Positions 3,708 to 37,501 of a stretch of 64,000 nucleotides of DNA are shown here, one piece after another. This DNA is from Candidatus Ratteibacteria bacterium (GTDB lineage: Bacteria; Ratteibacteria; UBA8468; B48-G9; DTJG01). Within the stretch, counting starts at the first letter, position 1; every line of letters begins with the position of its first letter. The notes beneath the pieces are model-generated. The model did no database searches. It saw only the letters and a program-made list of their open reading frames with translations, and was not told the DNA's origin. The position numbers and the translations under genes are program-made. The stretch spans positions 2,245 to 66,244 of the forward strand of contig JBMFLH010000001.1 of NCBI GenBank assembly GCA_049971295.1, given 5' to 3'.

Positions 3708-3719
3708 CAGGGAAAAGGA

Positions 3720-15480: not shown

Positions 15481-15622
15481 ATTAAAAATATTATCATACC
15501 TTGTGGCTAATATGTCAACAAAACAATATATTGCTGAGTCATATGAATATTTCAACCATTTTGTCACTTGTTGTAAAATAGAGGCAAAGGGAAAACCACC
15601 ACCCATTATAACAGGGGGACTT

Positions 15623-19773: not shown

Positions 19774-19805
19774 GGTAGAATATATTCATAACAACGAAAT
19801 GGGAA

Positions 19806-20073
19806 AGGAAATGAAAATAAATAATGCAGCCATCACGACCATAGAACTTCTCACTCTTATTGCACTTGCCTCGCTTGGAAGCAGTATCTTTTTCCCTGAA
19901 ATTGTCCGGATAAAAGAAAAAACAAATCAGGCGTTATGCGTAACCAACCTCAAACAGTGCTATATGGCACATATGATGTATGCCGCTGATTTCAATGATT
20001 ACCTGGTTCCAAATGAAAATCCAAAACAACCTGACTACCCGAGGGTGTGGACAACAGTGCTGATGGGATATTA
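19806..20073. repeat. Perfect 268-bp direct repeat, copy 1 (RBS plus 5' end of a DUF1559 gene)
   Basis: Base-by-base comparison with 30751-31018 shows identity. Identity ends at 20074 (t) versus 31019 (c) and at 19805 (a) versus 30750 (g). Confidence 0.9.
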
Positions 20074-20095
20074 TAGTACTTGTGGACCAGCATAA
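19811..20095 (+). pseudogene. Truncated DUF1559 prepilin-like gene fragment (94 aa). The first 87 codons are identical to the gene at 30756. It lacks the H-X9-DG C-terminal domain and ends in a divergent tail (STCGPA*).
   Basis: Nucleotides 19806-20073 are 100% identical to 30751-31018. The prepilin-like N-terminal hydrophobic helix is present, but the ORF stops after 94 aa. Confidence 0.6.
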
Positions 20096-20159: not shown

Positions 20160-20188
20160 TTGATATTTCAGAGTTTTAACGGTATAAT
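20160..20188 (+). promoter_or_regulatory. Sigma70-type promoter for tRNA-Ser (TTGATA-N17-TATAAT)
   Basis: TTGATA at 20160-20165, 17-bp spacer, TATAAT at 20183-20188, about 10 bp upstream of the tRNA 5' end. Confidence 0.5.
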
Positions 20189-20198
20189 GAATAGCACA

Positions 20199-20289
20199 GG
20201 AGGGGTCGCATAGAGGTCTAGTGCGGCGGATTGCTAATCCGTTGTATCGTCGAAAGGCGGTACCGTGGGTTCAAATCCCACCCCCTCCG
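20199..20289 (+). tRNA. tRNA-Ser (anticodon GCU), class II with long variable arm
   Basis: Perfect 7-bp acceptor stem (GGAGGGG/CCCCTCC), discriminator G, anticodon loop TTGCTAA, hairpin variable arm, T-arm GTGGG-TTCAAAT-CCCAC. CCA not encoded. Confidence 0.85.
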
Positions 20290-20407: not shown

Positions 20408-21454
20408 CTAATTAAAAAGGGACTCCATTTCAACCTTTTTCTTTAATTCTTCTGTCTTCTCTTTAAGTCCTCTGGTTTTTAAAAGAACCTCTGATATTTC
20501 CTTAAGATTGATCTCTGGACTTTTTTTCATCCTATCATAATAAGACATTACTAAGCTCCAAACATTTGCAAGTTGTTCTCCCTGACCCTTTAATGATGGA
20601 ATGGAATAAGCTTTTTCTATCCAGGGTTTGTAATCTGCCTCATATACCTGTGCAAGAGATGTAATTTTCCATTTCAAGATGTTGTACCTCGGTTCATTAA
20701 TTTCATGTTCAATGGCGTCAGATTCTTTTTTATTCAACATCTTTTTTTTGAAAACAATTGTCCCATAATTCTCCACTTCATGAAATGACTTTTGAATTTT
20801 CGGCCAGCATGAAACTCTTTCTTCTGCTGGTCCTGTGAGATTATTTCTTCCAACGTTTATTTTCCACTTTTCTCCATCAGATGGTATCTTCCCGAGCACC
20901 TTGAATGGTATTTTTATTTCAACTGACCAGAAATCTTTACCAACAAAACTTTTCGCCTGCCAGTTCTCGAGAGGAACCGTCTGAGCGATACCTACCGCAT
21001 TCCACTTTGAACTGATTGTGTTGACAATAAATTGCCAGCAATTCATCTCAGGAGGAATAAGAAATAATTCAACACTATCTTCCATCCATAAAAATTTGTC
21101 CCCATCTGGTCTTTTTGCTTCAATTTTCTGGACATCTGGCTCTTCAGCCTTAAAGGCAAAATAAAAATTTTCATTATCCCAGCCCGCCTTGAACCATGAT
21201 GGTTTGACCGTGGCAAATTCATTCCCGCCAAGAAGGAAAAAACACCTGGCTTCAGGAATAAACTGCCAGCAATCATCATCAACCTTGCCATCCAGAACCG
21301 GTTCCTTTTTGATTAGATAACACTGATACAATGAAATTTCTTTTGCGTTAATGAGATTGTCTTTAAGCTGTGTATTTTTGATATTGTCGGCAATAGCACA
21401 TCCAGCATAAAGCAATAAACAGATAAATAAAATTATATTCTGTAGTTTATACAT
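20408..21454 (-). CDS. Secreted protein with CBM9-like (DOMON-type) carbohydrate-binding domain
   Basis: Signal peptide (MYKLQNIILFICLLLYAGCAIA). CBM9-like block LDGKVDDDCWQFIPE...ATVKPSWFKAGWDNENFYFAFKAEEPD...SVELFLIP. Start trimmed to ATG 21454. Confidence 0.5.
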   Translation of the reverse strand: MYKLQNIILFICLLLYAGCAIADNIKNTQLKDNLINAKEISLYQCYLIKKEPVLDGKVDDDCWQFIPEARCFFLLGGNEFATVKPSWFKAGWDNENFYFAFKAEEPDVQKIEAKRPDGDKFLWMEDSVELFLIPPEMNCWQFIVNTISSKWNAVGIAQTVPLENWQAKSFVGKDFWSVEIKIPFKVLGKIPSDGEKWKINVGRNNLTGPAEERVSCWPKIQKSFHEVENYGTIVFKKKMLNKKESDAIEHEINEPRYNILKWKITSLAQVYEADYKPWIEKAYSIPSLKGQGEQLANVWSLVMSYYDRMKKSPEINLKEISEVLLKTRGLKEKTEELKKKVEMESLFN

Positions 21455-21467
21455 TTTAGCCGCCTTT

Positions 21468-24400
21468 TTATTTAACGTTGAATGTTTTTTCAACAGCAGT
21501 GCCTGTGGAAACATCTTTTACTTTTATTTTCCATAACCCTATTTGTTCATCGAGAGCAAGTGAAATCTTATCCTGAATTTTACCATTTTTTGCTGCAAGG
21601 TTTTTCGTGTAATATTTCATTTCTTTGCCAGAAGGCGATATCAAACATATATTAAAAACATGAAATCCAGGGGTTGATGTTGCCACAATTTCAGCACTGT
21701 AAGAAAATTCTGTACCTTGCTTAACAGTTCCTGGTACCGAAAGATTGATGCTGGTAACTCTGTATGGCAAAAGGCTATACACCTTTGGCTTAATAGGAAT
21801 AAAGTCTGTTGTAATTGTGTTTGTATATCCAATAAATCTTCCTTCCCTGGTATCATAAACGTAAAAGTTTTCAGGAAGCGATATCTGTCCTTTATTTTGT
21901 TTCTCAGCGATTGTATCATCAACTTCCTGAAGAATTCCCAGATACATGTTATTGCCCGCATTGTATCTGTACATTTTCAATCCAGGCACATCAGGCGATA
22001 TCATAATTTTCTTTTTGTTGCCTGCAAATGTCCAGAGTTTATCACAAAAGTCCTTCAATAAGAGAGCGTTTTCTACATTGACCTGGAGTTTCCCTTTTTC
22101 AAGTTCACCTTTTACTGAAGCATACTCCTTCATCGTAAAATTCAAAAGTATTCCCTTACCTTTACCATAGGTATTGGTAATCAGGACCGGTATACCATCA
22201 GCTGAACCAGCGGGTTGACCTGTGGTCACTTTTAAGGTAGTATCAACAATTGTTGCGGGCAGTTTTGAAGGGAAAAAAACATTACCAATTGAAATGTCTG
22301 TTTTCTTGCCACCCGAACGGTCAAAGGTATTCTGGGATATACCAAAAATTTCATCAAGAATTCCAGTTGAATATGATTTACCATGTTCATCACATACACC
22401 TGGTCGCAAATCAGCAATCACTGTGCCACCATTCCTGACGAAATTGATAATCTCTGATGCCTCTTTTTGTGAAAGTGCCTGAGTAAAGGGAAGATATAAA
22501 AATTTGAAATTGCCTGTATTGAGTATTCCATCCTCAATCTGCTTGGAAGAAATAATTTTGAATTGTCGTTGCGTATCTTCCATCACTGTTACAATGCTAT
22601 CCAGAACTTCTGCCATCGTTGGAAATTTGGGAGATAATGTCGCCATATGTACACTTGATGCCGAATATAAAATTGCTGTCTGATCGTAGTCTTTTTTTGA
22701 CGCCATAAACAGTTTACCGATACCAGATTTGATTTCATTGACCTGCGCAAGTGTAATCTTGAAAAAATCATAAAAAGAAAAATCAGAGGCAGTTGTACTA
22801 AGATTTTGCCCCGGAAAACCTGTCCACATAAAAACACCTGTCGCACCTTTAAAAAGATTTCTCCATGGGAAATAGTAATTAAATAATTTACCTTCCCTGC
22901 AGAAGGAATAACCACCTGTCCATCCAAAAGAAAGAAGGCTATTGGGCTGAGCAAAATCTTTAATAGCACAATCTATAAAAGGTCTTGTATAGTCACCGTT
23001 GAGATTGATAGCATTCATCAACTTGTAAAAGTCAGCAGCTTTAAAGGTGTTTACTTCAGCATCTGTTCCTTCGTAGCCAACCCTTGCATATGGAATTTTT
23101 TTCCGTATCACATCAGCAGCGTACTGATACGAACCCGCCCAGACACTTTCCATGCATCGTCTGTAATCAACCCAAAGAGGGATTAAATCAGGATTTTTTA
23201 TTGCAACCTGATAGGTTACAGGTTGCACTTCTAAAAATGAATTATAGTGTGAGTTATACTCCTTATTCAGGTTCTGAATGGTTTTGTATTCCTGTTGAAT
23301 AAATTCCTGGAATTTCTTTACGCAATATGGACAGAAACACAACTCATAGCCAGCGGGTGAAAAATGCAATTCATCGCCCATTGTGAACTCACACACCGAA
23401 AAATCTTTTACCTTATCAATGTCCTTATTCAAACCATCCGCAATCTTTTGCAAAACCTCAGGGTCATTGAGACATGGAACCCTCACATGATCTGAAGGGT
23501 CTCTTGGAGATTTTCTGTCAGCAAAAAACCATGTCACAGACTCGCATATACCAATGAAATTAAGATTTGCAAAGGGTATCATATCAGAAAACTGTGGATA
23601 GATTGTATCAATGCCAGCATTGTAATATAATTTATACAAATAAAAAGACAAATATGCTGTGTCAACAGGTCCACACCACATGATTGACCTGAAGTCATCA
23701 AGTGGTTCAATATCTGAAATAGAAAATTTTTGATTTTTTTCTGCAAGAATTTTTCCATCCTTTATCAATTGAACATTAATGTTATTCACAACTGTAAGAT
23801 AACTGGCTGGCAAAAGAGTGAAGTTTATTTCTCTGGAATCCACAGTTAGTGTTTTCTGCTGCAGAAGTCTGCCGAAATTATCTCTGTGCTGAATCCTTAA
23901 AATTAATCCGTTTTCAGGTTGCTGTTTCAAAACGATTTTTCCACCTATGGTATCGCTTGTCCTGAAACTCTTGTTCATTTCAATTTTTTCAATATCCTGT
24001 TGAGAGGATACCTCTAAAAAACAGCTCCCAAAATCAATCACCTTTCCACCATTTTTTATCCACACATCAACGTAGTATGAACCCGCCGCGAGATTGTCAA
24101 AATTTCCAGCAAGATTATTTTTGCCGGGATTCAGTTTAAGATTTTTCTCATCATTAAGAACTTCCTCCCCTGATTTTTTTCTGATAATAAAATTACAACT
24201 AATAGATTTTTCTTTTTGGCTTTCCACATTGAAATTGATGTTAATCTGCCTGCCATAGTCAACCATTACATAATCAGGGCCTGTAAGAATGCATTCAGGT
24301 TGTCTGTCAGCAGCCCATAAAATGGCTCGTATGATAAAGGCAAGATAGTAATCATAATCGCTATAATCGGTCTCAAGTGCACTTTTCTTTGGCTTTACGG

Positions 24401-25082
24401 GACACAAAAAATGCATCGCAGAATCAGCCACATAGTTTTTTATAATAAAAATTTTCCCCTTACCAAACGAATAGCAGAAGAAAGTTGATTTCACAAATTC
24501 GTCAAAACTGCGATATTTTTCAAATGCAGGCAATGCCCTGTATGGAAAAACAAACTGAAGATTCAGTGGCACCTTGTTTGTTGTTGCCCGTGTTAGATAC
24601 TCATCTGTATCCTGACCTGTCCTTTGATAGAACAAGAAATTCGTACCCTCTTTGATTTTTTTCAGTAACTCATATCTTGCCCACAATGGTAAAACATTCC
24701 AGCTAATACCTGAAACAATGACATCATAACTACCAGAAAGTTTCTCCTTTAAAATTTTGTCGTAGAATTCTGTCGTAATATTCGGTGGCAGAGCATAGTG
24801 TGGCTGAAGGTAATTGTATGGAGTGTCTGACGCAAATACATCATATTTTATATCCATTCGCTGAGATATTTCGACAATTTCCCTGAAACCTCCATTTAAT
24901 CTATAACCCAGAAATAACACTCTCAATGGCGGCTGAGCAGAAGGTTTCAACCATTTAATATGAGGAGTAACAACCTCTTCGTCTGGCATAAAATACTTGC
25001 TTCCATATCCTGGTAATTCATAGCCAAATATGATACTACAAAACAAAAAAGACACTCCTGCGAGCCACAATGCTTTGCTCAT
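21468..25082 (-). CDS. Giant secreted multidomain protein (1204 aa) with a GH42-like (beta-galactosidase family) glycoside hydrolase core
   Basis: N-terminal signal peptide. Cys cluster CFCPYCVKKFQEFIQQEYKTIQNLNKEYNSHY resembles the GH42 Zn site and the F..WL..Y....LN..W region. C-terminal GGTVIADLRPG-containing domain resembles the GH42 trimerisation domain. Confidence 0.45.
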   Translation of the reverse strand: MSKALWLAGVSFLFCSIIFGYELPGYGSKYFMPDEEVVTPHIKWLKPSAQPPLRVLFLGYRLNGGFREIVEISQRMDIKYDVFASDTPYNYLQPHYALPPNITTEFYDKILKEKLSGSYDVIVSGISWNVLPLWARYELLKKIKEGTNFLFYQRTGQDTDEYLTRATTNKVPLNLQFVFPYRALPAFEKYRSFDEFVKSTFFCYSFGKGKIFIIKNYVADSAMHFLCPVKPKKSALETDYSDYDYYLAFIIRAILWAADRQPECILTGPDYVMVDYGRQININFNVESQKEKSISCNFIIRKKSGEEVLNDEKNLKLNPGKNNLAGNFDNLAAGSYYVDVWIKNGGKVIDFGSCFLEVSSQQDIEKIEMNKSFRTSDTIGGKIVLKQQPENGLILRIQHRDNFGRLLQQKTLTVDSREINFTLLPASYLTVVNNINVQLIKDGKILAEKNQKFSISDIEPLDDFRSIMWCGPVDTAYLSFYLYKLYYNAGIDTIYPQFSDMIPFANLNFIGICESVTWFFADRKSPRDPSDHVRVPCLNDPEVLQKIADGLNKDIDKVKDFSVCEFTMGDELHFSPAGYELCFCPYCVKKFQEFIQQEYKTIQNLNKEYNSHYNSFLEVQPVTYQVAIKNPDLIPLWVDYRRCMESVWAGSYQYAADVIRKKIPYARVGYEGTDAEVNTFKAADFYKLMNAINLNGDYTRPFIDCAIKDFAQPNSLLSFGWTGGYSFCREGKLFNYYFPWRNLFKGATGVFMWTGFPGQNLSTTASDFSFYDFFKITLAQVNEIKSGIGKLFMASKKDYDQTAILYSASSVHMATLSPKFPTMAEVLDSIVTVMEDTQRQFKIISSKQIEDGILNTGNFKFLYLPFTQALSQKEASEIINFVRNGGTVIADLRPGVCDEHGKSYSTGILDEIFGISQNTFDRSGGKKTDISIGNVFFPSKLPATIVDTTLKVTTGQPAGSADGIPVLITNTYGKGKGILLNFTMKEYASVKGELEKGKLQVNVENALLLKDFCDKLWTFAGNKKKIMISPDVPGLKMYRYNAGNNMYLGILQEVDDTIAEKQNKGQISLPENFYVYDTREGRFIGYTNTITTDFIPIKPKVYSLLPYRVTSINLSVPGTVKQGTEFSYSAEIVATSTPGFHVFNICLISPSGKEMKYYTKNLAAKNGKIQDKISLALDEQIGLWKIKVKDVSTGTAVEKTFNVK

Positions 25083-25094
25083 TGATTGCCTCCT

Positions 25095-25805
25095 CTAATT
25101 TGAAAACAGTTTTTCAAACAAATATTGCGAGAAATCTTGCTTCAGCTCATAAATCAGAAAATAACCATCCCTTTCAATCTTATCAAGATATTTCTGCTCA
25201 AGTTTTTTTCTCAAAGATTCAGCTTCTGCACCCTGAAGGTTATTTTCTCTAATCAGGTCATCAAGAGATGCCTTCAAAATCGGTCTATATTTTTGAGCAC
25301 ACATCTCAATGCTCTTTTTATAATTTTCTCTACTTTCTATCAAAAGATTAATCCGTTCTGCTATCTGCCTTGCATCTGCGTTAAATTCAGGCGTTTGCAT
25401 GAGGACTGAAATATCTTTAATCGTACCTTTTTCTATAACAGATTTCACTCTTGTAAAAATAGCAGGATCCTGACCCTGTGGAACCGCTTTTTCCATTGAA
25501 GGAACCACTTTTAATATCACACTACAGGCAGAGGCAAGATTATTTTGAAAAATGTAAGATAAACAGAGCATCAATCCTGCTTTTACCTTTATCTCAAAAG
25601 GGGTGTCGTCATTATTAATGAGCTTTATCAATTCATCAGTTAGTTGTCCATACTGATTTGCTGTATCAGTTATAAAGGATGACATAAATTTCTCGTAAAT
25701 AGTCTGATAAATTATAGTTTTTGAATCAGTGGTTCCCTTTTGAGCAAAGGAAGAAATAGAAAAAAATAACAGACATACTACAGTACGCATACAAATTTTG
25801 CCCAA
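25095..25805 (-). CDS. Secreted hypothetical protein (all-alpha, 236 aa)
   Basis: Signal peptide MRTVVCLLFFSISSFAQ. No recognisable motifs. Confidence 0.5.
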   Translation of the reverse strand: MGKICMRTVVCLLFFSISSFAQKGTTDSKTIIYQTIYEKFMSSFITDTANQYGQLTDELIKLINNDDTPFEIKVKAGLMLCLSYIFQNNLASACSVILKVVPSMEKAVPQGQDPAIFTRVKSVIEKGTIKDISVLMQTPEFNADARQIAERINLLIESRENYKKSIEMCAQKYRPILKASLDDLIRENNLQGAEAESLRKKLEQKYLDKIERDGYFLIYELKQDFSQYLFEKLFSN

Positions 25806-25831
25806 CGTGTCCTCCCTGTTGTTTCCTCACA

Positions 25832-26530
25832 TCAATAATTCGCTATGGTCAGGTCTGCCCTCAATATGTCATAGACTGGAAGTAAATAATGTATCCTATC
25901 TTCATTGCATGCTTCAACATGTCCATCAGCAAACCATGCATTAGCAAAACCTGTATGTTTTAGATGTATGCATGCGCCCTGGGTATATGAGTAGTAGTAA
26001 ACTGCGTAAGGTTTTCCGACATTCCCGGCAGCAACAAGAGACGAATCCAGTAACCATGGGAACTCTGCTGGTTTTGGTAAATTGGTTATCCTGAGATACC
26101 AGGGTCCTGAAGGACTGTCCCGCCTTACATTTTTATTTCTTGATGTTGGACAAGGAAATTGCCAGCCAAAAATGGTTGGGTCTCTATAGTATGCAGCATT
26201 GACATCTATTGCAATACCGTTATATGCCCAGTTAAAAGGCTTCTGCCTGTTCGTGGGGCAAACAACAAGTTCCTGATTTTTTAGATATCCCTTAACAAAA
26301 TAAGGCTGAAGTCCAGTATAACCGGGCTGACCCACTGCCAACCAACCATCCCAATCCTCTGCATATAGCACCATTCCCAATCCTACTTGCTTCATATTGT
26401 TCATACATACTGCCTGGCGGGCCTTTTCTCTTGCCCGTGTCAGTACAGGAAGCAACATCGCAGCCAGAATCGCTATGATCGCAATGACAACAAGCAATTC
26501 AATAAGAGTGAAGCCCTTTTTCATTTTCAT
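25832..26530 (-). CDS. DUF1559 prepilin-like protein (N-terminal prepilin-type cleavage/methylation helix plus H-X9-DG domain)
   Basis: [25 protein letters not shown]-terminus; C-terminal [15 protein letters not shown] (H-X9-DG). Confidence 0.8.
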
Positions 26531-27587
26531 TCACCTCCTTTGTGTTTTTCAAATTCAATTGACATGGCAAAACAATTTCAATTTTTCGCTTTTCTCCAGT
26601 TATCAATTTCTTTAGAGATTCTCCCGCACATTTGCCAATCTCAGAAAGTGGCTGAATGACTTCATGAATATATCTTTTTTCCTCATATTCCACAGGAACC
26701 TCATCAAATGTAGCAATTTCAAGTTCATCAGGAATCCTTATCTTTTTGTTTCTCACCACATGTAGAACAATATCAAGCAGGCCTCCTCTCAACACAATCA
26801 CAGCTGTTGGTTTATATTCATCAAGCATTTTCTCAAAACATTCCTTCAATCCTGAAAATTCAAGAGGATCATGTTGTTTGATTTTAATGGTTACTATTGC
26901 TTTTTCGTTCTGTTCAATTCCTGCTTTCCTGCAGGCATTGATGAATCCCTGATATCGTTGCATTGCATATGAAATTTCCGTTATCTTGCCGACAAAGCCG
27001 ATTTTCCTGTGTCCCTTTTTTATCAAAAATTCTGTAATTTCCTCTCCTGCCTTTTCATGCCAGGCACTCACATAATTAATTCCTTTTTCAACTCTGTTAA
27101 CAGTAACAACAGGCATCATAAAATGGGTTTGTAATTTCTTTATCACAGAAATGTGATTGGAAAATGGTGCAATCCAGATCATCCCGTCAATATCCAGATT
27201 CTTCATCTTCACACAAAGTTCAGAATAACTACAATGATAAGGAAGAATGTGCATGCTAACATTATCAAACGACTCACTGTTTAACATCCCGGAAACAACC
27301 GATGCAATAAAAGAATCTTTCATATCCCGTTTTGGAGGAAGGATTACCATATAATGGAGCAATGATTCAGGTCGCAACTTCTTTTGAATAAAAGTACCTC
27401 TTCCTGGAATTCTTACCACAAGAGATTCTTGTTCAAGTTCATCAAGCGCACGGCGAACAGTAATGTGGCTAACACCAAACTGGCGTGTCAGTTGATTTTC
27501 TGTGGGCAACCGATCTCTTTCTTTCCCCTGTTCAATAATTTTCAACAAATAGTCTCTTATCCCTTCATAAAGGAATCGCTTCGTCAT
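26499..27587 (-). CDS. AraR-like transcriptional regulator (GntR-family HTH fused to a LacI/PBP-type sugar-binding domain)
   Basis: Gnt[45 protein letters not shown], followed by a periplasmic-binding-protein-like effector domain. Confidence 0.7.
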
Positions 27588-27676
27588 TTCGCTTTTTTTA
27601 ACATTTCTGTTTTCATGATATTATAATATAAATTATAAATTTGTTTGTCAAGTCAGCACAATATGAAAGGAGAGAA

Positions 27677-28747
27677 ATGGAGAAGAACAAAAGGTGGGTT
27701 CACCCCCTGTGCAAGCCGCTTGAGACAAGTTCAAATGGTCCATTTATTATGCTGTCTGAAAAGCAAATTTTTACGATTGATAATGAAGGCGCAAAGATAA
27801 GCGAAGATGAAGGAAAAAATTGGAAACATCTCTCGTTCGTTAGTGAGGGTATTAATCAATCCTGTCCAAGTACCCTTGGACTTTTGAAAACAAAAAATAA
27901 TACAATTGTTCTTCTATATCTTGACTTCAAAACATACAGGTTTTCCTGGAATAATGAAATCAATGAACCTCAACAGGATTGTAAACTGGAATTATGGGCC
28001 ATACGCAGCACTAATGGTGGGAAAACATGGAAGGACAAACAAAAAATCCTTGATGGCTATAATGCAGACTTTTTTGGATTTATCCAGACAAGAACCGGAA
28101 GAATTCTGGCAAGCGTTGAACACCTTGTTAGTAACCCTGCAAGGTGGGTAAGTTTTTCAATATACTCTGACGATGAAGGAAAAACGTGGGGAAAAAGCAA
28201 TATCATAGACATCGGAGGACATGGACATCATTCAGGAGCAATGGAACCAACTGTGGCTGAATTAAATGATGGGAGACTTCTGATGCTGATCAGAACAAAT
28301 CTTGACTGGTTCTGGCAGGCAATTTCTGACACAGATGGAAAATACTGGCGCACAATAATGCGAAGCAACATAGACGCCAGCAGCGCCCCGGGTTATTTAA
28401 CAAAATTGCAGAGTGGAAGATTGATACTTGTATGGAACAGAGTGGACCCAGAAAACCAGCAATTTCCCAGAGGACTTCCGAATCCTCAATGCGGTGAAGA
28501 GATAAATTCCAGCTGGCACAGAGAAGAATTATCAATAAGTTTTTCTGAAGATGATGGAAAAACATGGTTAAAACCGATTGTGATTGCAAAGCAAAAAGGG
28601 CAGATCAGTTATCCATATATCTTCGAAAGAAAACTCGGTGAGGTATGGATTACAGCCACCTGGCTGCGAGAACCCGATGGCAGTATTTCAAAAACACCAT
28701 TCAGAGTAAAGATAAAAGAAGAAGAATTTCTGAAAAACAACCGGTGA
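27677..28747 (+). CDS. BNR/Asp-box repeat glycoside hydrolase (sialidase/GH33-like beta-propeller)
   Basis: Four Asp-box repeats (STNGGKTW, SDDEGKTW, SDTDGKYW, SEDDGKTW). Start set at ATG 27677 behind an AAAGGAGAG RBS. Confidence 0.65.
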   Translation: MEKNKRWVHPLCKPLETSSNGPFIMLSEKQIFTIDNEGAKISEDEGKNWKHLSFVSEGINQSCPSTLGLLKTKNNTIVLLYLDFKTYRFSWNNEINEPQQDCKLELWAIRSTNGGKTWKDKQKILDGYNADFFGFIQTRTGRILASVEHLVSNPARWVSFSIYSDDEGKTWGKSNIIDIGGHGHHSGAMEPTVAELNDGRLLMLIRTNLDWFWQAISDTDGKYWRTIMRSNIDASSAPGYLTKLQSGRLILVWNRVDPENQQFPRGLPNPQCGEEINSSWHREELSISFSEDDGKTWLKPIVIAKQKGQISYPYIFERKLGEVWITATWLREPDGSISKTPFRVKIKEEEFLKNNR

Positions 28748-28752
28748 AAAAA

Positions 28753-30759
28753 ATGAAAACAAAATATCAACTGAACGTGTTTGAAAATGAAAAGGAAATT
28801 GGCATTGCCTGTCCTTACTGGATAGTCAAACATTCAAAGGAAAAAGGCGGCACGATTTCAGAAATTATCTTCAAGCAGGGCACTCAAAAAAATATTCTGG
28901 TTGAACCGTTAAGTTCCATGATTTTATTAAAGGAAGGGAATAATTATAATCGTTACTACGAATCTGAATGCAAAAATCCTGAAATAATGGTAGAGGAAAA
29001 AGAAAACATTGTGGTGACCTCACGCGGTACATACACCTGTGAAAATGGACAATGTGCTGATATTAAATACATAACTACATACCATTATAATGATTACGGG
29101 CTTGTAAGTATCACGCTTGAATTGAATTTCTCAAACACAGTAAAAAATATCATATCACTTAGTATCCTGAAGTTCTCTGTCTGTGGTTCATTAAATACTG
29201 CTGGTTATATACCATATGCGCAAAATGGGTTTTACCCATCGAGTTTTGAAAAGGTTATATGGAAGGAATTTGTTCAAAGACACTATTACAACAACGCTCT
29301 GTTAATGGGAAAATTCAGACCCGCGTATTTCTGCATTCTTCAAAGAAGGGTAGAGGGCATTGAAATTTTTAGCCCTGATATCATTGAAGATAACAGGTTT
29401 TTCAATAACAAAGAAAACACTGGATTCTATCAGGCGCGTTACCATGATGTTAAAAACATTGTTGAGATAGAGTTTTCGCCCTATGGAGAATGGCAACTCC
29501 CTATCTCGATGAAAAAAGGAAAATATTTATTTTCATATTTTCTTGGACTTCCTTCTAGCAAAGGGAAAAACGTGGTTCACCAACCATATTTTCATGCAAG
29601 GATTGACAGCAGATGGCCGGATGAAAAACAACTGGATATTCTTGCGAAATCAGGGGTGAAATTGATTCGACTACACAATGATTATAGAGAAGACGGTCCT
29701 TTCTGGCACGATGGGTGTTATCCACCATATGACAGAAAAAACATGGAAAAAATGGACTGGGTGATTGAACAAGTTCACAAACGAAAGATGAAAATCGTTC
29801 CGTATTTTTCTTTGAAGGAACTTCATCCAGATGCTCCTGAGTATAAAAAATTCAGAAAACTCTGGAAAAGAACGATTGATAAAAAATACTCTGTAATTCA
29901 CAATTATGCAGGTACCGGTGAATATGGCGCCCAGATGTGCCTGTGCTCAGGATGGAAAGAATTTAGAAAAAAATCTATAGACATCGTATTGAAAAAACAT
30001 TCTTTTGACGGAGTTTATTATGATTGGGTGGCATCTCTGCATTGCAACAATCCTGCTCATTTTGACGGAAAACAGCATACCGATATTGAACAGCTTATTG
30101 ACCTGATATTCTGGACAAGGAAAAGAGTTGGACCAGATGGAATAGTTTTCCTTCATCTTTCAGGGGTACCTATGATGGTTATTGAGAATACAGCAGATAT
30201 CATCTACACCCATGAAGACCTTCCATGGCTGGCTCCATACCCCGGGGACTTTTCACCTGAAACTGATTTTGCTGGAATCACCGTACATCAAATTACGACT
30301 TGCAATCTCTGCAATGATTCAGAAAAAGAAAAATTCTTTACACTCAGCTGTTTTCTCGAAGGGCTGTGGGTTTGTCCGAGAAATATTTCTGATAATGACC
30401 CTGTTGTAAAAGAAATGAAAAAATTTAGTCAATATGACCTCACATCCTATCAGTTTCAACCAGCCAGCGAAAAACCAGTTCATATCACCAGTACAAATAT
30501 TTACGCGTCTTTGTACTGGAAAACAGATTCAGTTCTGATTTATGTTGCAAACCTCAGCAACCAAAAAACATCAGGAAATATTCATGTCAATCTCACACCG
30601 AAAAACTGGAGTTGTACAACACAGGTAAGAATTAAATCACCTTATCTGATGAAAAAAACTAATATTGAGAAACTTTTTCGATATGGAGAAAAGCTGATAC
30701 TTTCACCATGGGAAAGTTATTTAATAGAAATTGAAAAACCTAAAAGGGGGAGGAAATGA
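28753..30759 (+). CDS. Hypothetical 668-aa protein, possibly a TIM-barrel glycoside-hydrolase-like enzyme
   Basis: Start trimmed to ATG 28753, overlapping the upstream stop. No signal peptide. No family assigned from sequence alone. Confidence 0.5.
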   Translation: MKTKYQLNVFENEKEIGIACPYWIVKHSKEKGGTISEIIFKQGTQKNILVEPLSSMILLKEGNNYNRYYESECKNPEIMVEEKENIVVTSRGTYTCENGQCADIKYITTYHYNDYGLVSITLELNFSNTVKNIISLSILKFSVCGSLNTAGYIPYAQNGFYPSSFEKVIWKEFVQRHYYNNALLMGKFRPAYFCILQRRVEGIEIFSPDIIEDNRFFNNKENTGFYQARYHDVKNIVEIEFSPYGEWQLPISMKKGKYLFSYFLGLPSSKGKNVVHQPYFHARIDSRWPDEKQLDILAKSGVKLIRLHNDYREDGPFWHDGCYPPYDRKNMEKMDWVIEQVHKRKMKIVPYFSLKELHPDAPEYKKFRKLWKRTIDKKYSVIHNYAGTGEYGAQMCLCSGWKEFRKKSIDIVLKKHSFDGVYYDWVASLHCNNPAHFDGKQHTDIEQLIDLIFWTRKRVGPDGIVFLHLSGVPMMVIENTADIIYTHEDLPWLAPYPGDFSPETDFAGITVHQITTCNLCNDSEKEKFFTLSCFLEGLWVCPRNISDNDPVVKEMKKFSQYDLTSYQFQPASEKPVHITSTNIYASLYWKTDSVLIYVANLSNQKTSGNIHVNLTPKNWSCTTQVRIKSPYLMKKTNIEKLFRYGEKLILSPWESYLIEIEKPKRGRK

Positions 30760-31018
30760 AAATAAATAATGCAGCCATCACGACCATAGAACTTCTCACT
30801 CTTATTGCACTTGCCTCGCTTGGAAGCAGTATCTTTTTCCCTGAAATTGTCCGGATAAAAGAAAAAACAAATCAGGCGTTATGCGTAACCAACCTCAAAC
30901 AGTGCTATATGGCACATATGATGTATGCCGCTGATTTCAATGATTACCTGGTTCCAAATGAAAATCCAAAACAACCTGACTACCCGAGGGTGTGGACAAC
31001 AGTGCTGATGGGATATTA
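30751..31018. repeat. Perfect 268-bp direct repeat, copy 2 (native 5' end of the full-length DUF1559 gene)
   Basis: Identical to 19806-20073. This copy is translationally coupled (ATGA) to the upstream 704-aa ORF. Confidence 0.9.
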
Positions 31019-31376
31019 CAAATACATTACTGATAAAAAAATCATCCATTGTCCTTCTGTTGAACCTCAGGCAGCTTCCATCAGTTTCTGTTATGGAAGC
31101 TGGACAAGAAACTTTGAAAAGATTAATCAGTTACCCGAAAAGTACAAAAAATCATCAAAAGAAATTATTCTTCTCGCTGATAGCTGGGCAACAAATATCA
31201 GCAAAGAAATGTGGCTTATTGCGCCACCTCCCACGCAGTATTATGTTGTATCACTTCGCCATGATAAAAAGGCAAATATTCTGTTTCTCGATGGCCATGT
31301 AGAAGCAGTCAGCCCTGATACAGTGCCTAAGGAAGGGTATGCTCCTTTTACACCTACTTTTTTTGCAATTCAGTAA
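30756..31376 (+). CDS. DUF1559 prepilin-like protein, full length (206 aa, H-X9-DG)
   Basis: N-terminal ITTIELLTLIALASLG helix; C-terminal HDKKANILFLDGHVEAVS. ATGA overlap with the upstream ORF. Confidence 0.8.
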   Translation: MKINNAAITTIELLTLIALASLGSSIFFPEIVRIKEKTNQALCVTNLKQCYMAHMMYAADFNDYLVPNENPKQPDYPRVWTTVLMGYYKYITDKKIIHCPSVEPQAASISFCYGSWTRNFEKINQLPEKYKKSSKEIILLADSWATNISKEMWLIAPPPTQYYVVSLRHDKKANILFLDGHVEAVSPDTVPKEGYAPFTPTFFAIQ

Positions 31377-32625
31377 ACTGGCTTGAAGAAATTTTCTTTA
31401 AGTCGCTGAACATAAAAGCATGAGTTTTTTTGACAGGTGGATACGCAATCTGTTCATAAAGCATCATACATGGAAAAATAGTATCAGTTCCGTACTTTTC
31501 GTTGATTGCATCCATTGCCTTCAACATTTTTTCCCTTTTTTCATTTCCAAAGAAAGACATCTGATATCTTTTATGAATCCCGGAAACACTTACGCCAAGG
31601 AGCCGTAATTTTTTTATAACAGGTTCTGCAAATATAAGAAAACTGGCATACCTGAATATTGTCTGATCATCATTAAACCAGAAAGGATAAGTTTTTCTTT
31701 TTGAAAATGATGTAAAATCACTGTATCTTACAACCACAGTAACAACATTACCATAATAATTTTCCTGTCTCATCCTCATACCAACCTGATGAGAAAGTCT
31801 ACACAGTACACTTAAAATAATATTAATATCATCTGTATCGTCTCTGAGAGTATAGGAGTGCCCAAAAGATTTTGGTTCTGGAGATTGAATATTCACCTTT
31901 GTTTCACCCATGCCATGGCACAGATACCACACCTGTTCACCTCTCACACCGAATTTCTTTTTCAGTAAATTTAATGGAATTTTTTCAATCTGTCCACAAA
32001 ATTCAATCCCCATTAAACTCAATTGTTCTGCCATTTTAGGCCCAATACCAGGCACCTTCTCCACAGGTAATTTTTCCATAAAACGCGGTATCTCATCCTC
32101 CATCACAATCATCAATCCATCAGGTTTACATAAATCAGAAGCAATTTTTGCAACAGTTTTATTGCGGGAAATTCCAACAGAACAGGTAAGTGCTGTCTCT
32201 TTTTTAATTGCATTTTTAATAGAAATCCCAAGTTCTATTAAATGTTCATTGGAAATATTCTCTGAAGATATCTCAAGAAATCCTTCATCTATTGAATAGA
32301 GTTCAACCTTTTCTGTAAAAGTTTTCAAAACATTAAAAATTCTTTGTGATGTATCAATATATTTTTCAGAATTACCCCTCACAATAATTGCCCCCGGGCA
32401 CAGATTTAATCCTTCAATAATACTCATTCCTGATTTCACACCATATTTTTTTGCCTCATAGGAACATGCCGCAATCACAGAATCCCTTGCAGTATTGCCT
32501 GAAACAAACACAGGTTTCCCTCTAAGAAAAGGATTAAATGTCTGTTCCACTGATGCGAAAAATGCATCCATATCAACATGAATAATTATGTTATTCATGT
32601 TATCCATCCATATGAATTCTATCAA
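31354..32625 (-). CDS. dinB: Y-family DNA polymerase (DinB/Pol IV-like), translesion synthesis
   Basis: IIHVDMDAFFASVEQ catalytic N-terminus, SIDEGFLEI motif, little-finger domain. The alternative start at 32607 is equally possible. Confidence 0.85.
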   Translation of the reverse strand: MIEFIWMDNMNNIIIHVDMDAFFASVEQTFNPFLRGKPVFVSGNTARDSVIAACSYEAKKYGVKSGMSIIEGLNLCPGAIIVRGNSEKYIDTSQRIFNVLKTFTEKVELYSIDEGFLEISSENISNEHLIELGISIKNAIKKETALTCSVGISRNKTVAKIASDLCKPDGLMIVMEDEIPRFMEKLPVEKVPGIGPKMAEQLSLMGIEFCGQIEKIPLNLLKKKFGVRGEQVWYLCHGMGETKVNIQSPEPKSFGHSYTLRDDTDDINIILSVLCRLSHQVGMRMRQENYYGNVVTVVVRYSDFTSFSKRKTYPFWFNDDQTIFRYASFLIFAEPVIKKLRLLGVSVSGIHKRYQMSFFGNEKREKMLKAMDAINEKYGTDTIFPCMMLYEQIAYPPVKKTHAFMFSDLKKISSSQFTELQKK

Positions 32626-32848
32626 GTTTCCATTGAAGTTTCACAGGGTCAAAATGAATTTCCCAGATCGCATTATCAGAAGAAACCGCAAAATGAAATA
32701 CTGGATATATCCCACTTTTTGTCATCCATCGATAGGTAATGTTTTCTACTGGAATAATTCTACTATTCCAGAACAGTGAAATAATCTTTATTGTACCTTT
32801 GCCAACAATCCACTTAACCTTTATTGGTTCGTTGACATCTGTAATCAT
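32600..32848 (-). CDS. 82-aa protein of unknown function encoded between lexA and the Y-family polymerase
   Basis: ORF abuts the lexA stop and overlaps the polymerase start. No motif recognised. Confidence 0.4.
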   Translation of the reverse strand: MITDVNEPIKVKWIVGKGTIKIISLFWNSRIIPVENITYRWMTKSGIYPVFHFAVSSDNAIWEIHFDPVKLQWKLDRIHMDG

Positions 32849-33430
32849 TTATACCCTCCGGAACACTCCTATTACTTTTCCAACAATCATATTTTCTTTT
32901 ACTTCCATGGGTTGATAAGAAGGATTCGCCGGTATCAGATAAATTTTATTTTTTATTTTTTTGAAATATTTAACAGTGGCTTCCTCACCTACAACAGCAG
33001 CAACGATATCTCCATTATGAATGTCAACATCTTTTTTTATAATCACATAATCACCATTATAAATATGCGCCTGTTCCATACTATCTCCAGAAACCTTTAG
33101 AGCAAAAACATTTTCAGTATCACTAAAAGAAAATAGAGTTTCTTCAAAAAAATCTTCAATCACAAGAGGTTTACCTGCCGCAATTTTTCCAATCACAGGA
33201 ATTCCGGAAAACTGTGGTAAAAATTTTATTCTCAATGCCCTGGCTCTGCTGGAATCTTTAACCAGATAACCCTTGTTTATTAAACTGCGAAGATGGCATG
33301 TTACCGCATTTGGGCTCTTAAATCCAAAAAATAAACGAATATCCTGAACCGAAGGTGCGTAACCATATTGTTTCATAAATAGAGTAATAAATTTCAAAAT
33401 TTCAGACTGACGCCCTGTTAATTTTTTCAT
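32849..33430 (-). CDS. lexA: LexA repressor (S24 peptidase)
   Basis: N-terminal winged-helix LexA DNA-binding domain. S24 catalytic Ser (GDSM) and Lys (VIIKK). Operator in its own promoter. Confidence 0.85.
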   Translation of the reverse strand: MKKLTGRQSEILKFITLFMKQYGYAPSVQDIRLFFGFKSPNAVTCHLRSLINKGYLVKDSSRARALRIKFLPQFSGIPVIGKIAAGKPLVIEDFFEETLFSFSDTENVFALKVSGDSMEQAHIYNGDYVIIKKDVDIHNGDIVAAVVGEEATVKYFKKIKNKIYLIPANPSYQPMEVKENMIVGKVIGVFRRV

Positions 33431-34833: not shown

Positions 34834-34855
34834 AAATACCCCTATAAAAATAAAA

Positions 34856-34930
34856 TGGTGGAGGTAATCGGATTCGAACCGACAACCTTCCGCGTGCAAG
34901 GCGGACGCTCTCCCATTGAGCTATACCCCC
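34856..34930 (-). tRNA. tRNA-Ala (anticodon UGC), CCA encoded
   Basis: Reverse complement gives GGGGGTATAGCTCAATGGGAGAGCGTCCGCCTTGCACGCGGAAGGTTGTCGGTTCGAATCCGATTACCTCCACCA. It has the G3:U70 alanine identity pair, anticodon loop CTTGCAC, and a GTTCGAATC T-loop. Confidence 0.85.
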
Positions 34931-37494: not shown

Positions 37495-37501
37495 TTAAAA
37501 A

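Follow-up and report, generated by a model that had tools for sequence, protein, structure and literature searches.

The locus described here can be compared with the PULs of Bacteroidota, with the AraR regulator of Bacillus subtilis and with several families of glycosidases. In clan GH-D, the nucleophile and the acid/base residue are located at the ends of strands β4 and β6, and in GH42 a four-cysteine zinc site is a feature of a subset of the enzymes. Glycosidase folds without an enzyme nucleophile are also known, namely GH20, GH84 and GH123, which use substrate assistance, and GH112, which uses phosphorolysis. GH181 is the inverting sialidase family of AmGH181 (8AXI) (PMC10067855). In the Tuwongella proteome, proteins with N_methyl and SBP_bac_10 (DUF1559) fractionate with membranes, and the neighbors of their genes often encode type I/II signal peptides (PMC8567305).

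The present locus is a conserved gene cluster of a Ratteibacteria-like uncultivated bacterium, encoding predicted glycan-cleaving enzymes, both exported and intracellular, pilin-like proteins and one sugar-sensing regulator. It was analyzed within a window of 64 kb, which is the whole stretch of DNA considered. The gene content supports a CAZyme-type locus with a regulator of AraR architecture. This is an ordinary kind of locus, but the component enzyme families are uncharacterized, and the main enzyme, called B below, is without the usual catalytic nucleophile. The interpretation that we favor, with a probability of roughly 60%, is that of a conserved sugar-responsive glycan-degradation locus, in which two divergent operons under the regulator would provide envelope enzymes and enzymes that finish imported oligosaccharides.

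Gene order and conservation

All eight ORFs, called A to H, are found where the first-pass annotation had placed them. Its domain calls, re-examined with Pfam and NCBIfam profiles (scores are above the curated cut-offs unless stated otherwise), are confirmed with one correction, which is that the 668-aa protein G does have a family. CAZy-related domains are found by Pfam in each of the three proteins for which they had been proposed, that is, CBM9_1 in the 348-aa A, Glyco_hydro_42/42M in the 1204-aa B and BNR_2 in the propeller F.

The genes form two compact divergent operons, E-D-C-B-A on the minus strand and F-G-H on the plus strand, with the regulator E at the junction. In the minus operon, E and D overlap by 32 nt, and the gaps are 26–41 nt for D/C, 12 nt for C/B and 13 nt for B/A. 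In the plus operon, F and G are separated by 5 nt, and G and H overlap by 4 nt, with the start of H over the stop of G. No transporter, secretion machinery or prepilin peptidase was found in the 64-kb window, and we therefore presume that the genes for uptake and export lie elsewhere. A scan of the ORFs of 150 aa or more in this window revealed neither a SusC-like TonB-dependent transporter nor a SusD-like protein.

The arrangement C-D-E on one strand and F-G on the other recurs in the relative L076, with identities of 44–71%, while L005 and L042 have the C-D-E/G arrangement without F. In a 90% relative, the BNR gene F has been cleanly lost and is the only gene absent. In L001 and L002, where B is 69–70% identical, the arrangement is H|C-B-A, and D, E, F and G are missing. 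In L060, a further Ratteibacteria genome, a G orthologue (46%) and a paralogue of B are found side by side with genes resembling D and E. Since one relative (70%) has none of D, E, F and G and another (90%) is short of F only, the locus is modular and not one fixed unit. The earlier proposal of a glycan-utilization locus thus holds with regard to the CAZyme content, the AraR-type regulator and the conserved layout, but not in the sense of an invariable assembly.

This modularity raises the question of whether two independent modules have simply been juxtaposed: an ancestral exported C-B-A module (with H), having its own promoter and substrate, and a separate D-E/F-G module, in which E would control only itself, F and G, with no common pathway. 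The H and C-B-A arrangement of L001 and L002 is what one would expect in this case, B-A pairs are widespread without G, F or E, and the homologues of G and F are located in quite different neighborhoods. However, L076, although a more distant relative than L001, has the five genes C to G next to each other in the order seen here, and parsimony therefore indicates that the joint arrangement is old and that the cassette was lost in L001. Furthermore, in L060 a G orthologue is once more found next to a B paralogue, and the short D-C gap contains no strong promoter-like site. We thus consider two unconnected modules to be rather unlikely, and the joint sugar-responsive locus is retained as the preferred interpretation. 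It is important to point out that the C-B-A core must nevertheless be able to use its own promoter, because it is present without E in a 70% relative.

The exported proteins A, B and C

We now turn to the giant protein B (21468..25082, minus strand), a 1204-aa exported multidomain protein. According to Pfam and the predicted structure, it consists of a signal peptide, an N-terminal α/β domain, two Ig-like sandwiches, a GH42-type TIM barrel (ca 465–796), a GH42M domain (ca 800–1020) and C-terminal β-sandwiches. Both Glyco_hydro_42M (35.8 bits) and Glyco_hydro_42 (32.1 bits) score above their cut-offs, and a signal peptide is predicted in all members of the B family. The structural model (pLDDT 92.5) matches whole GH42 chains in Foldseek, with E = 1e-26 and a TM of 0.68 normalized to the target for 3tts, at a sequence identity of only 11–14%. 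Compared to the GH42 enzymes of Bacillus circulans (3TTS), Geobacillus (Gan42B, 4OIF/5DFA) and Thermus (A4, 1KWG), to which GH164 and GH167 are related, the part of B from residue ca 465 to the C-terminus superposes on the whole chains, i.e. TIM barrel, GH42M α/β domain and β-sandwich. Unlike these enzymes, B has ca 440 extra N-terminal residues, comprising the α/β and the two Ig-like domains, as well as extra C-terminal sandwiches, a signal peptide and a conserved CBM9-like partner gene.

The four zinc-site cysteines of B (C537, C582, C584 and C587) all align with those of GH42, and the third is usually a serine in the relatives of B. The putative acid/base glutamate, E571, also aligns, and the motif at the end of strand β4 is G-D570-E571, that is, D-E and not N-E; the aspartate in place of asparagine is found in 28 of 29 family members, and D570-E571 is kept in 27–28 of them. 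By profile alignment to 3tts, the position of the GH42 nucleophile at the end of strand β7 corresponds to Thr722, and the 'MLMEQ' segment of 3tts is an insertion after 'GGYS' of B. Across the 29 family members this position is mostly tyrosine, but threonine, serine, alanine, glutamine, isoleucine and phenylalanine also occur, and Glu/Asp is found in 3 of the 29. No conserved carboxylate is present between Y698 and D767 in the 29-member alignment. The threonine in B and the variability of this position among family members do not allow B to be named a β-galactosidase, an assignment that was rejected also in view of the D-E motif, and it is probably not a classical one. The earlier description of B as GH42-like with a Zn-Cys cluster thus holds for the fold and the four cysteines, but the nucleophile is missing. 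The galactose-type substrate, which had rested on B being GH42-like, is not supported, as no β-galactosidase activity can be deduced.

The residue pattern of B, with a putative acid/base glutamate, the D-E motif and no nucleophile carboxylate, fits a nucleophile-free mechanism, such as substrate-assisted cleavage of a 2-acetamido sugar. Lacking the canonical nucleophile, B could also be inactive. In that scenario, the GH42 fold would be catalytically dead and would, together with A, bind glycans as a scaffold or act as a surface receptor, with other enzymes carrying out the hydrolysis. The threonine at the nucleophile position and its variation in the family, with a carboxylate in only a few members, would be consistent with this, as would the frequent replacement of the third zinc-site cysteine. 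However, D570-E571 is nearly invariant and further pocket-like residues (R534, N506, E671, Y698, Y725, W740 and D767) are conserved to the same degree, which points to selection on an active site, and the nucleophile-free folds mentioned in the introduction demonstrate in general that a glycosidase can do without this residue. A dead B is thus an improbable option, more so than the two-module arrangement, and an active B remains part of the preferred interpretation.

Directly downstream of B is A (20408..21454, minus strand), a 348-aa CBM9_1/DOMON-like exported protein that starts at Met21 of a 368-aa ORF. The CBM9_1 match in Pfam (34.6 bits vs a cut-off of 23.4, E = 2e-8) extends over residues 74–257 and profile positions 1–184 of 185, i.e. 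nearly the whole profile, in agreement with the first reading of A as a CBM9/DOMON-like secreted protein. The C-terminal helical tail has no family match. The signal sequence ends with LLYAG/C, and since A-G-C is conserved in L001, L005, L014 and L015, A is probably a lipoprotein. A gene of this kind is located directly downstream of B in ca 20 loci, from Omnitrophota, Lentisphaerae, Verrucomicrobiia, Planctomycetota and others.

The third exported protein, C (25095..25805, minus strand; likely start Met6 at 25790), is a 236-aa secreted orphan found in this lineage only. That it lacks a recognizable family, as had been suggested, is borne out: no Pfam or NCBIfam family was found, and a set of 1.84 billion representative proteins yielded only ca 5 real relatives. 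In L001, L005, L015 and L076, C keeps its place upstream of B.

The regulator E and the probably intracellular proteins F and G

E (26499..27587, minus strand) is a 362-aa regulator, in which Pfam finds both a GntR winged-helix DNA-binding domain (residues 6–67, E = 1e-15) and a LacI/GalR-type sugar-binding domain (Peripla_BP_3, residues 186–344, E = 6.5e-18), just as the first-pass annotation had proposed. The best NCBIfam matches are far under their cut-offs. Orthologues occur at the same position in L005 (75%) and L076 (51%). The two-domain architecture is the same as in AraR of Bacillus subtilis, and E is likewise encoded opposite to, and divergent from, a glycosidase operon and may control its own transcription; in contrast to this similarity, a close sequence relationship between the two proteins is absent.

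The 89-nt spacer between E and F (27588..27676) contains two face-to-face sigma-70-like promoters, one on the plus strand (TTAACA at 27598-27603 and TATAAT at 27622-27627) and one on the minus strand (TTGACA at 27651-27646 and TATTAT at 27628-27623). These are the two best such promoters in 12.5 kb, and the palindrome ATATTATAATAT at 27618-27629 contains both −10 boxes. Both the −35 and the −10 elements are kept in L005 and L076; they are the only elements conserved in the spacer and alone account for its conservation, and no operator for E was identified there.

F (27677..28747, plus strand; 356 aa, or 368 aa with the alternative start at 27641) is a BNR/Asp-box propeller of the GH33 sialidase type, which substantiates the earlier call. 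Pfam gives BNR_2 with E = 1.4e-32 as well as BNR_3 and BNR matches, with Asp-box repeats, as expected for the six-bladed propeller of GH33. The candidate catalytic set, R6, D28, E190, R206, R282 and Y312, fits all six GH33 positions and spacings. Of these residues, E190, R206 and R282 correspond to E218, R234 and R305 of AmGH181 in the HMMER alignment, and R6, D28 and Y312 are assigned by invariance and spacing only. The spacings are 22/16/76/30 in F, compared to 24/16/66/28 in the Micromonospora enzyme. F belongs to a family of its own, which is very conserved (53–60% identity across phyla, more than 1000 members). Membership in GH181 was also considered and rejected, as F has the invariant Y312 in 'SYPY' and, with 356 aa, is without the C-terminal domain. 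F thus resembles GH33 (Micromonospora 1EUR) in its BNR_2 propeller with Asp boxes and, tentatively, in the fit of R6, D28 and Y312 to the GH33 spacing, and it differs from AmGH181 (8AXI) in having the tyrosine of GH33 where GH181 has His-Gln (PMC10067855). Unlike both families, F is devoid of a CBM or accessory domain, and a signal peptide is missing in this clade. Most members of the F family are secreted, and any cytoplasmic role would therefore be specific to this clade.

G (28753..30759, plus strand) is a 668-aa protein within a 704-aa ORF. It had been considered to be without a family, but DUF6259 (PF19773) is matched with 31.2 bits vs a gathering cut-off of 28.7, and this domain, a family without a characterized member, is carried by most of the 73 G homologues found. 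Weak Pfam matches to GHL10 and GH114 are also obtained. No Melibiase-type (GH36 / clan GH-D) match was found in Pfam, nor any sequence match to a GH36 protein or to a solved structure (PDB). The structural model, however, is confident (pLDDT 92) and its best match is a GH36 enzyme (6phw, E = 1e-21); the top 25 Foldseek matches are all GH36, with a TM of only ca 0.5 and identities of 8–11%. As in GH36 (SpAga 6PHW, AgaB 4FNQ and FpGalNase 8X1B; clan GH-D), an N-terminal β-supersandwich is followed by a TIM barrel and a C-terminal β-sandwich. The invariant D424 is the last residue of strand β4 (420–424) and the invariant E488 is two residues past strand β6 (483–486), which, judging from the model, would be where clan GH-D places its nucleophile and acid/base. 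The candidate acid/base would then be a glutamate, unlike the aspartate of GH36. No signal peptide is predicted in G, as in most GH36 enzymes.

Because neither F nor G has a signal peptide, they are probably not surface enzymes. This also bears on another scenario, in which the locus would process or recycle the cell's own exopolysaccharide instead of a nutrient and would be tied to a cluster of glycosyltransferase, Wzy and sugar-transferase genes at a distance of 3.7 kb. This cluster (35058-41671), with Bac_transf, Wzy_C and three GT4 genes, does adjoin the locus, the synteny is kept in L001, and the weak GHL10 and GH114 matches of G could be viewed in the same way. However, LexA, DinB, an unassigned ORF and a tRNA-Ala are located between the two clusters, divergent promoters together with a sugar-binding regulator of the repressor type are a typical feature of catabolic loci, and the B-A pairs of other phyla are not beside glycosyltransferase clusters. 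Considering also the lack of signal peptides in F and G, we regard this scenario as very unlikely.

In the preferred interpretation, that of a sugar-responsive degradation locus, E would be transcribed from one of the two overlapping face-to-face promoters and would most likely bind the 89-nt spacer, thereby controlling its own operon (E, D, C, B and A) and the opposite one (F, G and H), with a sugar released from the substrate as the signal. The minus operon would supply the cell-envelope part: the pilin-like D, the small, secreted and helical C, the exported GH42-fold enzyme B and its partner A, the probable CBM9-like lipoprotein that may anchor either B or the polymer to the cell surface. 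From the plus operon, F and G would finish the imported oligosaccharides, where F may remove a sialic-acid-like (nonulosonic or ulosonic) sugar and G may act as a GH36-like retaining α-glycosidase. In favor of this interpretation, further glycan enzymes (GH123-like, GHL10, sulfatase, GH29 and fucose isomerase) are encoded in the neighborhoods of G and F homologues. The regulation by E, the activities, the localizations and the order of action are what we infer from the observed domains, folds, gene order, conservation and promoter-like elements.

Pilin-like proteins and comparison with known systems

D (25832..26530, minus strand) is a 232-aa prepilin-type DUF1559 / H-X9-DG protein with the canonical motif G/FTLIE. 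It matches N_methyl (E = 1.4e-9) and DUF1559 in Pfam and TIGR02532 in NCBIfam, and its H-X9-DG motif was found by pattern, with TIGR04294 scoring 13.7 bits, under the cut-off of 19. For H (30756..31376, plus strand; 206 aa), both the pattern and TIGR04294 (22.2 bits vs the same cut-off) are found, but the prepilin motif is degenerate (A/ITTIE) and Pfam gives no N_methyl match. The description of two full-length H-X9-DG pseudopilin-like proteins is thus correct with regard to the H-X9-DG motif in D and H, and has to be modified for the prepilin part of H.

A third HX9DG paralogue (19799..20095, plus strand), just outside the annotated range, is truncated to a 98-aa ORF. A direct repeat of 268 nt, perfect and corresponding to the start of an HX9DG gene, brackets the whole locus, one copy being located in this remnant (19806-20073, plus strand) and the other, identical one at the start of H (30751-31018, plus strand). 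In the 90% relative L014, an intact HX9DG gene has its C-terminal end at the remnant site, and the same spacer and the tRNA-Ser come next. This tRNA-Ser(GCU) (20199..20289, plus strand), with a sigma-70-like promoter match (11/12) ahead at 20160-20188, is located downstream of A in L005, L014 and L015.

The embedding of HX9DG genes in such loci is corroborated by their presence in 30 of 60 B-family loci, where they tend to be upstream of the B-family gene. They are on the same strand as the latter in 35 of 42 cases, more than other neighbors (65% baseline, p = 0.008). A role of the DUF1559 proteins in glycan capture, on the other hand, is pure conjecture. Compared to the DUF1559 expansion of planctomycetes (PMC8567305), D and H have the same architecture, and the position of D beside C, B and A matches the flanking pattern reported there. 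Here, however, the genome is from a candidate phylum outside the planctomycetes, the copies are found at the module borders of a single glycan locus, and the cleavage motif of H is degenerate.

Finally, the locus can be compared to the PULs of Bacteroidota. Common features, predicted here from the genes, are the co-localized and probably co-regulated surface and intracellular glycan enzymes, the carbohydrate-binding lipoprotein and the sugar sensor. In contrast to a PUL, the present locus is without SusC/SusD, any transporter and a hybrid two-component sensor, and contains instead the pilin-like HX9DG proteins.

Layout, transcription and conservation of the locus

Eight tightly spaced open reading frames, A to H, lie within the interval that the first-pass annotation had marked out. 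On the minus strand are found E (26499-27587), D (25832-26530), whose start shares 32 nt with the end of E, C (25095-25805), B (21468-25082), 12 nt beyond C, and A (20408-21454), for which a start at Met21 leaves a gap of 13 nt after B, a spacing shared by a relative at 90% identity. On the plus strand are F (27677-28747), with its likely start at the ATG at 27677 directly after an AGGAG, G (28753-30759) and H (30756-31376), which shares 4 nt with G.

The Pfam and NCBIfam scans assign A to CBM9_1, B to Glyco_hydro_42M plus Glyco_hydro_42 (the latter covering profile positions 143-254 only), D to N_methyl and DUF1559, E to GntR and Peripla_BP_3, F to BNR_2 (E = 1e-32) and H to the H-X9-DG domain, which confirms the domain calls that had been made from the sequence for these proteins. 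D and H are paralogues with 26% identity. The 236-aa secreted protein C and the 668-aa protein G had both been described as lacking a family. For C this holds, as the Pfam scan gave no significant match and about five real relatives were found among 1.84 billion representative proteins, while G has a match to DUF6259 that exceeds the Pfam gathering score.

Core genes (gyrAB, lgt, lspA, glyS, lptFG, recA, ilv and others) make up the rest of the window. The possibility of a foreign genomic island is ruled out by these core genes on the flanks and by the uniform GC content, 0.36-0.39 over the locus and equal to that of the flanks. The nearest GTDB genome is the unclassified MAG JPMR_maxbin.046, at about 90%, and a copy of F identical in sequence carries the NCBI label 'Candidatus Ratteibacteria bacterium'.

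The best two sigma-70-like matches between 19.5 and 32 kb stand face to face in the 89-nt spacer between E and F, TTAACA-18-TATAAT on the plus strand and TTGACA-17-TATTAT on the minus strand. A perfect palindrome, ATATTATAATAT (27618-27629), contains both −10 boxes, and the −35 and −10 elements are kept in the matching spacers of two relatives. No comparable promoter-like site was found ahead of D, C, B, A, G or H, and the simplest reading is that of two divergent transcripts, E-D-C-B-A and F-G-H. A protein bound over the overlapping −10 region could block the initiation of both transcripts together, and the position and architecture of E suggest that it would be this protein. An operator of E was sought in the spacer and none was identified, the conserved parts coinciding with the −35 and −10 boxes; the AT-rich palindromes have too low an information content for any claim to be made for them in this role. 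At its other end, the overlap of E with D (26499-26530) is not shared by the orthologue in the 90% relative, which ends at the start of D (L005:3160-3175), and the C-terminal tails of the two E proteins differ, which suggests that the 3' end of the gene has undergone a small change of frame.

The same layout is present in a Logan contig (L076), where C (44% identity), D (66%) and E (51%) are divergent from F (71%) and G (66%). Since this is the most distant of the relatives compared here, the full arrangement is read as old and, by parsimony, the differences among the relatives as losses. In L005, L006 and L042 (B 89-90% identical), A, B, C, D, E and G are present and F is absent. In these contigs G directly follows the conserved promoter, and a stretch of about 25 nt upstream of it still shows homology to the 3' end of F, stop codon included, which means that F has been deleted there. 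In L001 and L002 (B 69-70%), LexA, DinB and H are followed by C-B-A, and D, E, F and G are all absent; apart from this, the flanks are in full synteny with those of the locus in the window, as far as the glycosyltransferase cluster. E-like and D-like genes are again neighbours of a distant paralogue of B and an orthologue of G (46%) in a second genome from Ratteibacteria. The D orthologue of the 90% relative (L005:3172-3865, also in L006 and L042) is in two overlapping pieces of 147 and 92 aa in different frames, an apparent frameshift that may reflect a pseudogene or else a sequencing error.

Several further genes of the window can be described here. Immediately beside H there is an SOS-type cassette (31354-33430) consisting of LexA, an 82-aa ORF and DinB/Pol IV, in which DinB shares 23 nt with the end of H; the LexA/DinB cassette adjoins the locus in L001 too. 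It is followed by a 461-aa ORF without a Pfam family (33514-34930), which shares about 44 nt with tRNA-Ala(UGC) (34856-34930), so that its start must be further downstream; its orthologue at the same place in L001 has 439 aa. At 35058-41671, three GT4 glycosyltransferases, a Bac_transf priming transferase and a Wzy_C/TPR protein, syntenic in L001, look like a cluster for exopolysaccharide or O-antigen biosynthesis. At 16540-17645, two consecutive overlapping ORFs match positions 1-129 and then 129-209 of the DAO (FAD oxidoreductase) profile, the second running on into a URO-D C-terminal match, and this looks like a frameshifted or fused gene. Finally, the region 33-5696 encodes a 1224-aa protein whose sole domain is an FtsX-like permease (residues 951-1061), followed by a 658-aa protein without a Pfam family.

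The GH42-fold protein B and its partner A

B belongs to a family of proteins of about 1200 aa, all with a signal peptide, that occurs in Omnitrophota, Ratteibacteria, Lentisphaerae/Victivallales, Verrucomicrobiia, Planctomycetota, Kiritimatiellae, Armatimonadota and others, with at least eight copies in the Verrucomicrobiia MAG STC_78. The related loci were searched with a query alignment of 16 closer sequences. The AlphaFold model (pLDDT 92.5, pTM 0.91) consists of an N-terminal alpha/beta domain, two Ig-like sandwiches, a TIM barrel, the GH42M domain and C-terminal sandwiches. From the barrel onward it superposes on entire GH42 chains (3tts, E = 1e-26, TM 0.68 normalised to the target), and the next-ranked matches are GH164 and GH35-type enzymes. 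The Pfam scans gave nothing significant for the N-terminal alpha/beta domain, the Ig-like region and the C-terminal sandwiches of B, nor for the C-terminal tail of A.

The first-pass annotation had regarded B as a GH42-like exoprotein, and profile alignments to GH42 structures do place E571 at the acid/base glutamate and C537, C582, C584 and C587 at the cysteines of the zinc site. However, the asparagine of the GH42 N-E motif is Asp570 in B, and is Asp in 28 of the 29 family members. No counterpart exists for the nucleophile segment ('MLMEQ' in 3tts). The strand register makes Thr722 the equivalent residue; among the 29 members this position is mostly Tyr, with Thr, Ser, Ala, Gln, Ile or Phe in others and a carboxylate (Glu or Asp) in three only. 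Because of the D-E pair in place of N-E and the variable nucleophile position, we class B neither with GH42 nor as a beta-galactosidase. As the nucleophile position is not conserved, an automatic 'beta-galactosidase' label is unsafe for the whole of this widespread family. R534, N506, E671, Y698, Y725, W740 and D767 are conserved at the barrel strand ends, which indicates a pocket under selection. For B as for G, the catalytic assignments come from HMM alignments, invariance and predicted strand ends.

A D-E pair without an enzyme nucleophile would, we presume, be similar to that of the substrate-assisted hexosaminidases (GH20, GH123), or else belong to a nucleophile-free chemistry, and this is offered as a lead. 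Phosphorylase chemistry of the GH112 type was also considered, as the homologue P0024 carries LBP_M, but it is unlikely for an exported protein such as B.

Gene A directly follows B in about 20 loci, from several phyla, in which B is at least 30% identical. In the close relatives the signal sequence of A ends in a conserved, lipobox-like A-G-C, and lgt and lspA are both inside the window. We infer that A is a dedicated carbohydrate-binding or anchoring partner of B, and the two form a conserved enzyme/partner pair that is open to expression and assay. In a 39% relative (L003:1-7028, JGI Ga0209749_1000004), a second GH42-like gene (1234 aa) and an unassigned 1110-aa gene are located a few kb upstream of the B-A pair, and a Laminin_G_3 protein comes after A.

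The propeller F and the DUF6259 protein G

F has more than 1000 homologues, with identities of 53-60% across Armatimonadota, Planctomycetota, Kiritimatiellae, Lentisphaerae, Hydrogenedentes and Calditrichota, and its nearest solved relatives are AmGH181 and the GH33 sialidases. E190, R206 and R282 of F align with E218, R234 and R305 of AmGH181, and R6 (in 'RWVHP'), D28 and Y312 are invariant or nearly so and stand at GH33 spacing. F is thereby predicted to fill all six catalytic positions of GH33, the first three residues by direct alignment and the other three by invariance and spacing. The His-Gln of GH181 is replaced by Tyr, as in GH33. Most family members have a signal peptide, which is absent from F itself and its closest relatives. 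The neighbourhoods of the homologues contain GFO/IDH/MocA oxidoreductases, a sulfatase, a DHDPS-family lyase, a fucose isomerase and GH29. Candidates for the sugar that F would remove are sialic acid, Kdn, Kdo and bacterial nonulosonic acids. Some GFO/IDH/MocA oxidoreductases act on anhydro-sialic acid. Two such genes are present in the window (58857-60035 and 15503-16597), and a member of this family is located directly upstream of the F homologues in L011 and L012.

For G, 73 homologues of 630-750 aa were found in Omnitrophota, Planctomycetota, Ratteibacteria and Lentisphaeria, mostly without a signal peptide. In the model (pLDDT 92, pTM 0.92), a TIM barrel lies between an N-terminal and a C-terminal beta-sandwich. 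There is no sequence-level relative of G among solved structures. The best 25 Foldseek matches of the model all belong to GH36 (alpha-galactosidases or alpha-galactosaminidases; E down to 1e-21, TM about 0.5), followed by GH101, GH129, GH31 and the beta-L-arabinopyranosidase 5XFM. The invariant D424 (in 'YYDW') is the final residue of strand 420-424 and the invariant E488 lies two residues past strand 483-486, positions which we take to be those of the nucleophile and the acid/base in clan GH-D. DUF6259, of which no mention was found in the literature, would in this way gain a concrete structural assignment, namely a predicted glycosidase fold of three domains, similar to that of GH36, in which D424 and E488 are invariant. 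A 52% homologue of G adjoins a divergent DUF1559 gene, a GH123-like protein, a GHL10 protein and a GntR regulator, and DinB is found near the G homologue in L007.

H-X9-DG genes at the borders of the locus

The window contains three copies of the H-X9-DG/DUF1559 (HX9DG) pilin-like genes, namely D, H and a truncated one at 19799-20095; all are at this locus and none is in the other 52 kb. One or more D/H-like genes are found within 10 kb in 30 of the 60 GTDB loci that carry a B homologue, and 29 such genes lie upstream of the B homologue at a median distance of 2 kb. They are co-oriented with B in 35 of 42 cases, compared to 65% for all neighbouring ORFs (one-sided p = 0.008, over loci that are phylogenetically non-independent). 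Owing to this non-independence, the support for a true embedding of D/H-like genes in B-family loci is moderate. It agrees with the published remark that genes for signal-peptide proteins are frequent neighbours of HX9DG/DUF1559 genes (PMC8567305). Otherwise, the literature on these proteins was found to treat only their expansion and membrane fractionation, and that on Ratteibacteria gave nothing on the A-H locus.

The segments 19806-20073 and 30751-31018 form a direct repeat of 268 nt that is 100% identical and spans the ribosome-binding site and the first 88 codons of H. The two copies bracket tRNA-Ser and the genes from A to G, 10.9 kb in all, and recombination between them would excise the locus. 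An assembly artefact could be suspected behind such a repeat, but this is unlikely. The copies have four distinct junctions, and the third HX9DG copy is a 98-aa remnant in which the repeat is joined, out of frame, to the final codons of a paralogue, as left by an internal deletion; the C-terminus of this paralogue is intact at the same site in the 90% relative. The contigs of that relative end inside exactly these HX9DG genes, as a real repeat would give.

These observations allow two linked readings, to which together we give a probability of only about 0.15. On the enzyme side, the B family (about 1200 residues, in at least six phyla and with up to eight copies per genome) may be a new glycoside hydrolase family derived from the GH42 fold, in which a D-E pair has taken over from the Glu nucleophile (substrate-assisted or otherwise nucleophile-free) and which acts at the cell surface as an enzyme of two components, the CBM9-like protein being its dedicated subunit. 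On the pilin side, the hugely expanded HX9DG/DUF1559 proteins may be locus-specific partners of such exoenzymes, each encoded at the head of its own operon, and a fibre like those of type II secretion or type IV pili may serve them to tether or export the enzymes encoded alongside. Their near-identical 5' ends may also be recombination sites at which cassettes are shuffled or excised, the 268-nt repeat being one example. If the pilin-like proteins are indeed such partners, the number of paralogues would be explained as the number of secreted-enzyme loci, and a long-standing question in planctomycete/PVC biology would be addressed. With two or three copies bordering one regulated locus, the window is a small system in which the HX9DG/DUF1559 expansion, so far unexplained, could be studied.

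For the uncultivated Ratteibacteria, Omnitrophota and their PVC-type neighbours, annotation is the basis on which carbon sources are guessed. The earlier proposal of a regulated glycan-utilisation locus stands as to its kind, while galactose and sialic acid as the substrates, B as a GH42 enzyme and the capture of glycan at the cell surface by DUF1559 proteins are not established. Compared with known systems, the locus is of an ordinary type, assembled from uncharacterised families, and three points deserve further attention: a GH42-fold family that lacks the nucleophile and has a CBM9-like partner, the GH36-like fold predicted for DUF6259, and the HX9DG genes at the module borders.
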